Part shown: positions 23,595 to 26,616 of the stretch, piece after piece
Layout: each line of letters begins with the position of its first letter
Position numbering within the stretch: the first letter of the stretch is position 1
Translations under genes and position numbers: made by a program
Notes under the pieces: generated by a model
Database searches by the model: none
Told to the model about the DNA's origin: nothing
Seen by the model: the letters and a program-made list of their open reading frames with translations, nothing else
Origin: a virus
Lineage: Duplodnaviria > Heunggongvirae > Uroviricota > Caudoviricetes
Virus record (IMG/VR): IMGVR_UViG_2737471847_000003
Span: 1 to 40,522 of that record
Strand: one strand, 5' to 3'
Length of the DNA stretch: 40,522 bases

Positions 23595-25553
23595 ATGTCC
23601 GATTTCGAAATTAAAATAGACCTGAATGTATTGAATCATTTAGGTATGAGTCTTTACTCTAACACACCAGCTGTTCTAACTGAAATAATCTCAAATGCTT
23701 GGGATGCGGATGCTAAAAATGTAGACATCACTCTAGATGTTGAAAATGAAAAGGTAATAATTAAAGATGATGGACATGGAATGTCAAAAGATGACATCAT
23801 TAATAAATTCCTAAAAGTTGGATATGCCAGAAGAGAAAGTGGAAGGTATAAAAGTGATGGATTACAACGACAAGTCATGGGTAGAAAAGGCATTGGTAAA
23901 TTAGCAATGTTTTCATTAGCTAACAAAATCCAAGTATTTTCTCACAAAATTGGCCAAACGCCTCAGGGATTTGAAGTTGACGTTGATGAATTGCAACGCT
24001 GTATAAAAAGCAGTAAACAATATGTTGCAAATATTATTAATGTTCCGAAAGACTTTAGTATAGGGACGACAATAGTTCTTATGGATTTAAAAAAATCCAT
24101 TGATAGAACTCAGACCTATCTAAGAAAAAGACTTGCCAGACGGTTTAGCATAATTGGTCCTGGTCATGATTTTATAGTTAAAATCAATGACACTGAGATA
24201 ACTACTGAAGATAGAGACTTCCTTTCAGATCTTGAATTTTTATGGGAGTTTGGTAGTTCAGATCCCGCAAGAGTAAAATCTTGCAAAAATCTTTCTAAAA
24301 AAAGCCTTCTAGATAACAAATTATCTTTTGAAGGCGTAGATTATTTCATTACTGGTTATGTAGGAAGTGTTGAGAAACCATCTCAACTTAAAAAAGACCC
24401 TGAAATATCTAACAACACGATAACCGTAATATCAAATGGGCGGGTATTTGAAGAAGATATATTGCTTGAATTCGGAAGCGCAAAGGTTTTTACAAATTAT
24501 TTAGTAGGGGAACTTGTCGCAGATTTTTTAGATGAAAATGAAAAACCTGACATGGCAACCTCATCCCGACAGAAATTACAGCAGAATGATCCACGCTATC
24601 CTGTGATTAAGGGTTTCTTAGAACGGACATTACAAAAAATAGATAAAGAATGGGATGAATGGCGAAGAGCAAAAGGTCTTAGCGAGGTTAAAAAAACTTC
24701 ACCTGCTGTAAGTGATTGGCTTGATTCCATGTCAAAACATGAAAGAAACAGCGCCGAAAAATTACTAGGCAAAATTAACACATTTAGATTTTCTGGAGAT
24801 GAAGAAAACCAGAAAATTGCAAAAAAAACCGTATTAAAAAATACAGTTCTTGCTTTTGAAAGATTAAGAATAAAAGATAACCTTGAGGCTTTAGATAAAA
24901 TTAGCGATTTAAACTCAGAACATTTTAGGGAGGTTTTTGCTTCTGTAAATGATATTGAGGCAAGCCTTTTTTATGAGATTACATCACAGCGATTGAAAGT
25001 TATTGAGAAATTTCAAAAAATCACCGATGACAATGAGTTAGAGAAGGCTGTACAAAAATATCTTTATGACCACTTATGGCTGTTAGACCCATCATGGGAG
25101 AGGGTTACTGGTTCTACAGTTATGGAACAAACCCTGACTAAGGAATTGAAAGAGGTTAACCCTGACGCTGAAAGTGGTGCAAGAATTGATATAGCCTTCA
25201 AAACCGTTTCAGGTAAACACGTCATCATTGAAATGAAAAGACCAAATGTATATCCTGATATTTTGGCATTAGTAGGTCAAGGAAGGAAATATGTTGTTGC
25301 CACAGAGCAGTGGTTTAGAAACAACCCAAATAGTTGCCCTGCCGGAAAAATACCACCGATAGATGTAGTTTTTCTTGTCGGCAAAGGTTATGACGGAAGT
25401 GGAGATAATTATATTCGCTCACAGCTACAATCTATAAATGCAAAGGTATTAACATATAGCGATCTTATAATACAATCCAAACAAGCATACTCTGAGTATC
25501 AGAGCAAAAAAGATGATGCTGCACGAATAATGAAAATTGTTGATGGTATCTAA
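23595..25553 (+). CDS. GHKL (MORC/MutL-like) ATPase fused to a C-terminal PD-(D/E)xK-like nuclease; candidate restriction/defence enzyme
   Basis: 652 aa; AGGAAAGGA RBS; Bergerat-fold motifs EIISNAWDA (N box), DDGHGM (G1), GRKGIGK (G2); C-terminal RIDIAF...HVIIEMKRP (D...ExK); AT-rich by eye. Confidence 0.6.
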   Translation: MSDFEIKIDLNVLNHLGMSLYSNTPAVLTEIISNAWDADAKNVDITLDVENEKVIIKDDGHGMSKDDIINKFLKVGYARRESGRYKSDGLQRQVMGRKGIGKLAMFSLANKIQVFSHKIGQTPQGFEVDVDELQRCIKSSKQYVANIINVPKDFSIGTTIVLMDLKKSIDRTQTYLRKRLARRFSIIGPGHDFIVKINDTEITTEDRDFLSDLEFLWEFGSSDPARVKSCKNLSKKSLLDNKLSFEGVDYFITGYVGSVEKPSQLKKDPEISNNTITVISNGRVFEEDILLEFGSAKVFTNYLVGELVADFLDENEKPDMATSSRQKLQQNDPRYPVIKGFLERTLQKIDKEWDEWRRAKGLSEVKKTSPAVSDWLDSMSKHERNSAEKLLGKINTFRFSGDEENQKIAKKTVLKNTVLAFERLRIKDNLEALDKISDLNSEHFREVFASVNDIEASLFYEITSQRLKVIEKFQKITDDNELEKAVQKYLYDHLWLLDPSWERVTGSTVMEQTLTKELKEVNPDAESGARIDIAFKTVSGKHVIIEMKRPNVYPDILALVGQGRKYVVATEQWFRNNPNSCPAGKIPPIDVVFLVGKGYDGSGDNYIRSQLQSINAKVLTYSDLIIQSKQAYSEYQSKKDDAARIMKIVDGI

Positions 25554-25577
25554 AAAAAAGGGCGATTCGCCCTTTTT
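25552..25577. terminator. Bidirectional intrinsic terminator shared by the convergent ATPase-nuclease and methyltransferase genes
   Basis: AAAAAAAA-GGGCG-ATT-CGCCC-TTTTTATTTT. Confidence 0.75.
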
Positions 25578-26616
25578 ATTTTCTTTTAAGGTGTTCAATA
25601 ATACTTTGCCCAACAACTTCACCGAGCCTCACCGGCACAGCATTACCAATCAGTCGTGCAACATTCCTGAGTTCAACTTTTACTTCAGCTGGCCAAAATT
25701 CATAAGTTAGAGGAAAAGATTGAAGCAAAGCTGCCTCTCTTAGGCTAATAGCTCTATTTTGTTCTGGATGACCAAATCGACCATTACCAAAACCTATACA
25801 TTGTGTTGTAATTGTAGAGCCAAGTTTATCCCAGCTCATTCTTCCATAAACTGCAGTGTAAGAAGATCCTGATTCTTTGGTGTGGCATGACGCCCGTAAG
25901 TACTCAGGCCAATCTTTCCATGTTCCACCTGGCTTAGAATGTTTTATTCGCTCCATATTTAATGGTGATAAAGATGCAGCATAATGAAGTCTGTCTTTCT
26001 CATCACTCGATCCAGCATCAATAGGAGGCAATCCACCAATAACGCTACGTACAGTGTTATAGTTATTTTTATCATGTGTTGGCGGGATTAGTTTTATCTC
26101 GCCAAACTTGGACGCTAATAACACTAATCTAGATCGGCTTTGGGCCATTCCATAATCAGGACAAAATACAGTATCATACCAAACGAAATACCCTTCAGAC
26201 TTTAAAGTCTTCACAAAATCTTTAAAAACTTTGTGGTTAATAACTCTTGGAACATTCTCCATTGTGACTATATCTGGAGCACATAATTGAATTTGCTTAG
26301 CAAAGCTATACAATAAAGACCATCGATGGTCTTTTATTTTTTTTACTGATTTATCAGTATTTGTATAACTAGAAAATGGCTGGCATGGAGCGCATCCAGC
26401 TAAAACTTTAATTGATGCATCCTTAAAATGCTTACTTATTTCCCCTTCATCAAGTTCAGTGACGCTTTTTTGCACAAATAAAGCATTGTTATTTTTTTCA
26501 TAAGCATACCGACATGTAGCATCAATATCATAGCCTGCAACCACATTCAACCCTGCTCGTTGCAAACCATGAGTTAAGCCACCTGCTCCGCAAAAAAGAT
26601 CAACAACTTTAATCAA
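25576..26616 (-). CDS. DNA (cytosine-5) methyltransferase
   Basis: 346 aa; motif I FCGAGG, motif IV PCQPFS, motif VI ENV, C-terminal target-recognition region. Confidence 0.85.
   Translation of the reverse strand: MIKVVDLFCGAGGLTHGLQRAGLNVVAGYDIDATCRYAYEKNNNALFVQKSVTELDEGEISKHFKDASIKVLAGCAPCQPFSSYTNTDKSVKKIKDHRWSLLYSFAKQIQLCAPDIVTMENVPRVINHKVFKDFVKTLKSEGYFVWYDTVFCPDYGMAQSRSRLVLLASKFGEIKLIPPTHDKNNYNTVRSVIGGLPPIDAGSSDEKDRLHYAASLSPLNMERIKHSKPGGTWKDWPEYLRASCHTKESGSSYTAVYGRMSWDKLGSTITTQCIGFGNGRFGHPEQNRAISLREAALLQSFPLTYEFWPAEVKVELRNVARLIGNAVPVRLGEVVGQSIIEHLKRK

Follow-up and report, generated by a model that had tools for sequence, protein, structure and literature searches.

A probable BbrUII/HgiDII-family restriction-modification pair in the cos-proximal hotspot of a 186/P2-like Escherichia coli prophage

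What kind of system occupies the AT-rich module beside the cohesive-end (cos) site of a P2-like prophage, and does it belong to a kind that has already been described? The question is raised by IMG/VR virus record IMGVR_UViG_2737471847_000003, of which positions 1 to 40,522 (the whole stretch analysed, hereafter the window) were examined; the window is a 186/P2-like E. coli prophage, with a backbone of terminase ATPase, portal, capsid, tail, gpA, CI/CII and int genes in the PGAP annotation. An earlier note, made from the letters alone, described two genes near cos that converge on one terminator, the first for a 652-amino-acid (aa) fusion of a GHKL ATPase to a PD-(D/E)xK nuclease and the second for a compact C5-cytosine (m5C) methyltransferase; it read them as a restriction-modification (R-M) pair related to MORC/MutL-like ATPases, and it knew of no biochemically characterised example. 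From the analysis reported here, the pair is very probably a two-gene Type II R-M system of the BbrUII/HgiDII family, with the architecture called paraMORC3, which the prophage bears as a moron in its defence hotspot near cos. The evidence is drawn from the domain folds, from membership of the family, from invariant ATPase and nuclease residues, from the conserved company of an orthologous methylase and from the site in the hotspot. The R-M reading and the MORC/MutL link were borne out; the claim of novelty, however, fails because the protein matches a named and characterised family.

Family membership and architecture of the restriction protein

The 652-aa protein scored 752 bits (E = 6e-226) against NCBIfam NF050001, "BbrUII/HgiDII family restriction enzyme", an equivalog model of 659 positions with a curated cutoff of 550 bits, and the alignment ran from end to end, with residues 4-651 on model positions 1-658. 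Relatives from Shewanella, Alcanivorax, Burkholderia and a haloarchaeon also exceeded the cutoff (651-801 bits), but distant Dcm-linked relatives from Yersinia phage P37 and Campylobacter reached only 329-336 bits; the cutoff therefore discriminates. Furthermore, the protein matched the PADLOC model REase_II PDLC03419 (E = 9e-91) and its partner matched MTase_II PDLC03378 (E = 3e-87), giving the adjacent, separate R and M genes, each recognised by Type II models, that define a Type II R-M system. Two RefSeq records that are 100% identical to the protein label it merely "ATP-binding protein", whose E. coli relatives at 71% identity carry the name "BbrUII/HgiDII family restriction enzyme" in newer PGAP/RefSeq runs.

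The family has a published history under several names. R.HgiDII was described as an N-terminal GHKL domain followed by a C-terminal domain of unassigned fold (Orlowski and Bujnicki 2008, PMC2441816), and in the same year paraMORC3 was defined as GHKL and S5 domains plus a restriction-endonuclease-fold domain with an E-D-ExK signature, tied to Dcm and Vsr, with a proposed role in DNA looping (Iyer, Abhiman & Aravind 2008, PMC2292703). GHKL-Shedu fusions were later listed by Gu et al. 2023, and paraMORC3 was equated with Shedu type I-D when VcSduA was genetically validated (Adams et al. 2025, PMC12137116). In VcSduA, which joins a GHKL domain to DUF4263, the E27A (ATP hydrolysis) and K557A (nuclease) substitutions each abolish phage defence, and the modelled dimer forms a clamp (PMC12137116); these two substitutions are close to the mutations that the earlier note had proposed to make. 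The same Pfam arrangement as that of the window pair also appears in Table S5A of a catalogue of P2 hotspots (Rousset et al. 2022, PMC9122126). The earlier note had itself said that a match to an already characterised R-M or defence family would refute the idea of an uncharacterised kind of pair, and such a match was found.

The GHKL, nuclease and methylase motifs that had been quoted were all present in the translations; in the 652-aa protein they are EIISNAWDA (residues 30-38), DDGHGM (58-63), GRKGIGK (96-102), RIDIAF (530-535) and HVIIEMKRP (542-550). The N-terminal part matched Pfam HATPase_c_3 (E = 2e-23), and structural comparison of the N-terminal module returned MORC3 (values of 22.1 and 287), SMCHD1 (21.2 and 303), MORC2 (20.1 and 299) and the MutL N-terminal fragment (17.7 and 275), which assigns the first ~310 residues to a GHKL+S5 ATPase module. 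A PDB sequence search gave only weak matches to the N-terminal parts of Hsp90, HtpG and MutL and no solved close relative. The middle region, residues 334-475, matched no Pfam family; it is helical in the AlphaFold2 model, in which the predicted local distance difference test (pLDDT) falls below 50 at residues 449-465. A separate model of residues 471-652 (pLDDT 84) had PD-(D/E)xK nucleases as its sole structural matches, namely NucS (9.0), AF1548 (8.9), E. coli Shedu SduA (8.3; 22% identity), FokI (7.7) and HindIII (7.1), so the nuclease core proposed earlier was recovered as a fold; among these top matches, SduA is the closest in sequence.

Residue conservation was taken from an alignment of 38 homologues (43-91% identity). 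Invariant positions in the GHKL boxes are E30, N34 and D37, D58, G60 and G62, G96-G101, and G157 and T158; in the ATSSRQ loop they are S323, S324, R325 and Q326; and in the nuclease domain they are E483, D532, E546, K548, Q562 and Y566. The protein thus has the features by which paraMORC3 was defined, an N-terminal GHKL domain whose ATP-binding motifs are intact, then S5, and a C-terminal restriction-endonuclease fold with E-D-ExK, and the family's prevalence in proteobacteria and its association with Dcm and Vsr are likewise matched by the pair. The protein departs in nothing from paraMORC3, a family defined by computation, for which DNA looping has been proposed and no target site assigned. 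Unlike MutL/MutH and the eukaryotic MORC ATPases, it has its nuclease fused to the ATPase, lacks MutS-type partners and CW and coiled-coil domains, and is accompanied by a cognate m5C methylase in place of Dam.

The closest named enzymes are HgiDII of Herpetosiphon and BbrUII of Bifidobacterium breve UCC2003, with which the comparison was made through the family model and published descriptions. The likeness lies in the full-length NF050001 match, in the N-terminal GHKL plus second C-terminal domain shared with R.HgiDII, and probably in the partner, a ~350-aa m5C methylase like M.HgiDII. The window pair differs in its host, E. coli, in its carrier, a P2-like prophage hotspot, and in its convergent genes, several relatives in the family having M and then R.

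Linkage to a cytosine methylase and the competing readings

The 346-aa partner is a full-length C5-cytosine methylase (Pfam DNA_methylase, E = 5e-57) with FCGAGG at residues 8-13, PCQPFS at 77-82 and ENV at 120-122. Gene neighbourhoods of the restriction protein were compared at 15 loci: this window, Escherichia phage PhiR44_1, E. coli PCN033, Shewanella baltica, Gallibacterium, Alcanivorax, Burkholderia glumae, Halobaculum (an archaeon), Yersinia phage P37, Campylobacter coli, Rhizobium, Deinococcus, Streptococcus agalactiae, Acinetobacter and Rubrobacter. A Dcm-type methylase was directly adjacent to the nuclease gene at 14 of the 15, and the linked pairs span Gamma-, Beta-, Alpha- and Epsilonproteobacteria, Deinococcus, Firmicutes, haloarchaea and three phages. 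The order is convergent in the gammaproteobacterial clade of the window and in Deinococcus, and M then R in most others. A gene for Vsr, the usual companion of m5C methylases, adjoins the pair at two of the loci. The methylases beside the nuclease homologues are orthologous to that of the window (37-75% identity), including the variable specificity region between motifs VIII and IX, and the window methylase is 49-75% identical, target-recognition region included, to the neighbours of R in Shewanella, Alcanivorax, Burkholderia, Halobaculum and Campylobacter. Linkage that is kept across gene orders, hosts and genomic contexts indicates a functional R-M pair rather than chance adjacency.

M.HgiDII is an m5C methylase for GTCGAC, and the haloarchaeal HVO_C0040 has been reported as a homologue of both M.HgiDII and M.BbrUII (PMC5867850). 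Because of that specificity, the equivalog status of NF050001 and the conservation of the methylase target-recognition region, the predicted target of the window pair is probably GTCGAC. The best 120 homologues of the window methylase were closer relatives with generic names throughout. Three GTCGAC sites occur in the 40.5 kb of the window, all of them outside the cargo; other 6-bp palindromes are similarly rare or absent (GGCGCC, GGATCC, GAGCTC and GGTACC at zero; CCCGGG, CTCGAG and GTGCAC at one each), and any avoidance of GTCGAC is uninterpretable for that reason.

Several points weigh against a GTCGAC-specific R-M system. The target is predicted indirectly, by way of the family model and target-recognition conservation. 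M.BbrUII is called an m5C methylase by one source and an N6-adenine methylase by another, and the Bifidobacterium papers other than the original BbrUII description disagree on the base that it modifies and give no recognition site for BbrUII. HgiDII has been classed as orthodox Type IIP (PMC2441816), a listing that does not account for a conserved ATPase. A small helix-turn-helix controller (C) gene, sought among the open reading frames (ORFs) in 23484-26850, had no credible candidate, a point that bears on safe establishment in a new host. The relative on a Rubrobacter plasmid has no annotated adjacent methylase in a gene table that is incomplete. Lastly, VcSduA, with the same architecture, defends without a methylase, and a GHKL-nuclease therefore need not be a site-specific restriction enzyme.

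This last point underlies the best of the alternatives, a Shedu-type (type I-D) immune nuclease in place of a fixed-site restriction enzyme. On this reading an infection cue or a DNA structure would be recognised by the GHKL module of the 652-aa protein, a nuclease of low specificity would then be released, and the Dcm would mark self broadly or serve some other purpose. Fusions of this type are known from the list of Gu et al., and VcSduA alone defends E. coli against T1-like phages, with both ATPase and nuclease required (PMC12137116). The two proteins are indeed alike, on comparison of architecture and residue position, in the GHKL ATPase, the middle domain, the DUF4263-like PD-(D/E)xK nuclease, the equivalent Glu and Lys (E27 and K557 in VcSduA; E30 and K548 in the window protein) and their encoding on mobile islands. 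However, the window protein passes an equivalog model that was built on two named restriction enzymes, and PADLOC matched it to REase_II and to none of its Shedu models. Pfam SduA_C (PF14082) gave a weak match in 21 of 22 homologous C-terminal domains, but the window copy scored 18.1 bits, under the 27-bit gathering cutoff. VcSduA acts alone, with no methylase reported, whereas the window protein is tied to a cognate Dcm, and the orthologous methylase with its conserved target-recognition region, sometimes joined by Vsr, is an R-M signature that has not been reported for VcSduA and that departs from the single-gene form of Shedu. The Shedu reading is accordingly considered unlikely.

Very improbable is a second alternative, in which an orphan phage Dcm directed against host restriction and an unrelated stand-alone ATPase-nuclease are independent cargoes that lie side by side because they share a hotspot. 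Orphan methylases are frequent in phages, this prophage also has a Dam-type methylase by gpA, and P2 hotspots often house more than one system (PMC9122126); yet the pair also stays together outside phages and outside the hotspot, in archaea and distant phyla, both in chromosomes and in plasmids and in two gene orders. Moreover, the divergence of the two proteins is broadly parallel (78, 58, 45 and 41% for R against 75, 65, 57 and 49% for M), and the genes share one terminator across a 22-nt gap.

Type II R-M systems are known to act as addiction modules, and the pair is rare in E. coli and lies on a mobile element, as a module maintained chiefly for post-segregational killing might be. That stabilisation of the prophage is its main role and phage defence incidental is nevertheless the least credible of the alternatives, involving the same molecules and mechanism as a Type II R-M system, with which it is compatible, in a hotspot that is documented as a reservoir of defence genes (PMC9122126). 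A Type IV (methylation-dependent) restriction enzyme was rejected, since it would be lethal beside its own Dcm.

The cargo module and its surroundings in the prophage

The two genes lie exactly at the positions given earlier and occupy an AT-rich module near cos, as had been described, with a GC content of 0.34-0.39 over 24-27 kb against ~0.55 in the phage backbone (coordinates of all features are given in Table 1). In a 186-like prophage of E. coli ET846 with an empty site, homology to the window breaks off at 23483 and restarts at 26851 (blastn), and the module stands in place of ~76 bp. The terminase ATPase gene/portal gene Q end is at 23174, gpA extends over 27436-29850, and the cos-like sequence GGCGTGGCGGGGA lies between portal gene Q and the cargo; it is the single match to the P2/186 cohesive-end consensus, with three mismatches, all at the 3' end. 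As a small correction to the earlier note, a DinI-like gene and a gene for a 62-aa hypothetical protein separate the module from gpA.

Table 1. Features of the cargo module and the adjacent cos-like site, in window coordinates
Feature	Coordinates	Strand	Basis
AT-rich cargo insert (3.37 kb)	23484..26850	.	blastn against empty-site E. coli ET846; GC
Restriction endonuclease gene (652 aa, ATG), BbrUII/HgiDII family = paraMORC3	23595..25553	+	ORF; NF050001; PADLOC REase_II
GHKL (Bergerat) ATP-binding domain, residues ~1-170	23595..24104	+	
S5-like transducer domain, residues ~185-315, then invariant ATSSRQ loop (321-326)	24147..24539	+	
All-helical middle region, residues ~334-475; candidate DNA clamp or linker	24594..25019	+	AlphaFold2 model
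C-terminal PD-(D/E)xK nuclease domain, residues ~479-652; predicted catalytic E483, D532, E546, K548	25029..25550	+	
C5-cytosine DNA methyltransferase gene (346 aa, TTG)	25576..26616	-	ORF; Pfam DNA_methylase; PADLOC MTase_II
Bidirectional intrinsic terminator, A8-GGGCG-ATT-CGCCC-T5	25552..25577	.	Terminator scan, sequence, folding energies
Candidate sigma-70 promoter of restriction gene: TTGACA, 17 nt, TTTAGT	23501..23529	+	Inferred, read from sequence
Promoter-like site upstream of methylase: TTGTCT, 17 nt, TAAAAT	26678..26706	-	Consensus match, 9/12 positions
cos-like sequence GGCGTGGCGGGGATACGA (packaging-site marker, outside module)	23337..23354	-	P2/186 cohesive-end consensus match

The module is thus a variable insert between portal gene Q/cos and replication gene A, which is how the cos-proximal hotspot of P2-like phages is recognised, and its assignment to the site where P2 carries old and tin held. 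The gpA-gpQ hotspot of P2-family phages has been described as a reservoir of defence systems (Rousset et al. 2022, PMC9122126); a 2026 preprint on P2/P4 hotspots mentions neither MORC nor Shedu nor R-M. Known cos-proximal cargo of P2 and P4 (old, tin, and the EcoO109I R-M system on P4-like satellites) resembles the window pair in its locus between gpQ/cos and gpA and in its logic of prophage-borne exclusion, but not in its proteins, which are unrelated to those of the window: Old is a nuclease of the ABC-ATPase/TOPRIM type, and EcoO109I is a restriction enzyme of orthodox type that comes with a C protein.

Among 5426 complete E. coli genomes the pair was found in 33, two of which carry a copy identical to that of the window and 31 a variant ~71% identical at the nucleotide level; the stretch 23200-27450 is 100% identical in E. 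coli strains PEC1011 and HS4. The 71%-identical variant lay in the gpQ-gpA hotspot in both cases checked, E. coli PCN033 and Escherichia phage PhiR44_1. The PhiR44_1 pair, whose nuclease homologue is 78% identical, was deposited as "ParaMORC3" and "Dcm protein", and a literature search found no paper as the source of that "ParaMORC3" annotation.

The two genes converge, as described earlier, on one bidirectional terminator, which was recovered by a terminator scan, by sequence and by folding on both strands. The hairpin has a folding energy of -13.2 kcal/mol on the plus strand and -12.7 kcal/mol on the minus strand (z-scores -2.3 and -3.3), each followed by a U-run; it is placed between the two stop codons, and the methylase TAA (25578-25576) lies inside the T-run. 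PGAP starts the methylase at an ATT at 26619, one codon upstream of the TTG at 26616; the TTG lies 7 nt from an AGGGAGG Shine-Dalgarno sequence at 26630-26624, and this better spacing makes it the likelier start. The promoter candidate of the restriction gene was missed by the consensus scan because its -10 hexamer has no A at position 2, and the number of promoter-like sites in the region was not above shuffled expectation.

Related pairs were also seen on other phages and plasmids. In the peduovirus Yersinia phage P37 (MT239398.1, 1932-4977) a Dcm gene is followed co-directionally by a GHKL-nuclease gene, again at the gpA/cos end; this nuclease shares only 25.6% identity with the window protein and, at 329 bits, falls under the NF050001 cutoff. 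A pair that is divergent and still lies at the same end indicates that a second paraMORC3-Dcm lineage entered the same hotspot. Family members lie on P2-related prophages in different hotspots in Shewanella baltica (locus L002, 4271-9298) and Gallibacterium (L003/L004, 2932-9852), the Gallibacterium pair being placed between the CI region and tail gene D. On Campylobacter coli pSH89 (L012, 1944-5016) the methylase is 54% and the adjacent GHKL-nuclease 26.7% identical to the window proteins, which would fit either faster divergence of the restriction gene or its exchange next to a conserved methylase.

Elsewhere in the window, a Dam-type DNA adenine methylase gene (~29847-30704, minus strand; PGAP) lies just upstream of gpA; with the m5C methylase of the cargo, the prophage therefore carries two DNA methyltransferases of different types. 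Directly after the phage integrase, a gene at ~34307-35566 (plus strand, GC ~0.32) encodes a 419-aa hypothetical protein that matched nothing in Pfam or PADLOC and may be a moron of the att-proximal end. Beyond the int end of the prophage, beside a second integrase, lie two minus-strand genes (~37618-39366 and ~39368-40522, the latter leaving the window; L001, 34419-37887) for a 582-aa protein with Pfam Response_reg_2 (E = 3.7e-31) and a 572-aa protein with HEF_HK and HATPase_c; no PADLOC model matched either, and the two genes have the look of a conflict or defence module of two-component style, carried by a separate island that is integrated in tandem with the prophage. A recombinase-family (invertase) gene at 8351-8917 is flanked by oppositely oriented tail-fibre and tail-fibre-assembly genes (L001, 5152-7311), which suggests an invertible host-range switch.

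Proposed mechanism and meaning for the family

In the mechanism proposed for the window pair, we infer the target sequence, the dimerisation, the ATP dependence, the defence phenotype and the addiction effect. The 346-aa Dcm-type enzyme would methylate C5 of a cytosine in the target sites of both the host chromosome and the prophage. The 652-aa enzyme would act as a dimer, its MORC/MutL-like GHKL+S5 module binding ATP and dimerising as in MutL and MORC, and this dimerisation would close the helical middle region around DNA. Such clamping may license or position the C-terminal nuclease, with its predicted catalytic residues, to cleave target sites that lack methylation in the DNA of phages or plasmids entering the cell. 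The genes have separate upstream regions, and both transcripts would stop at the common terminator. A lysogen would gain protection from unmodified phages, the prophage DNA would leave the cell methylated, and loss of the module or of the prophage would be penalised by post-segregational restriction.

For the family as a whole, a tentative extension, rather less than even in its likelihood, is that the "Type IIP" enzymes HgiDII and BbrUII are ATP-gated clamp nucleases, in which a MORC-like GHKL dimer would have to bind or hydrolyse ATP in order to entrap DNA, and a Shedu-type nuclease would then cut the unmethylated site. If this were true, the family would be an evolutionary and mechanistic bridge from classical R-M to the stand-alone Shedu type I-D represented by VcSduA, and the methylase alone would separate a self-safe restriction enzyme from an infection-triggered nuclease. 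The surprise to a specialist would be modest, because the question of the ATPase dates from 2008 and the 2025 work on VcSduA took up part of it.

The window pair belongs to a family that already has a name, and what the analysis adds is modestly useful, namely the joining of names and a fold for the C-terminal domain of HgiDII. The names R.HgiDII/BbrUII (REBASE, NCBIfam), paraMORC3 (the Aravind group) and GHKL-Shedu type I-D (VcSduA), which were kept apart in the sources consulted, are brought together, and the C-terminal domain of R.HgiDII, left unassigned in the 2008 classification, is now given a Shedu-like PD-(D/E)xK fold. For annotation, the fitting description of the 652-aa protein is the restriction half of an HgiDII-type R-M system. 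The central question for the family is why a Type II restriction enzyme retains a fully conserved MORC-like ATPase, and the E. coli prophage copy would be a convenient system in which to test it.

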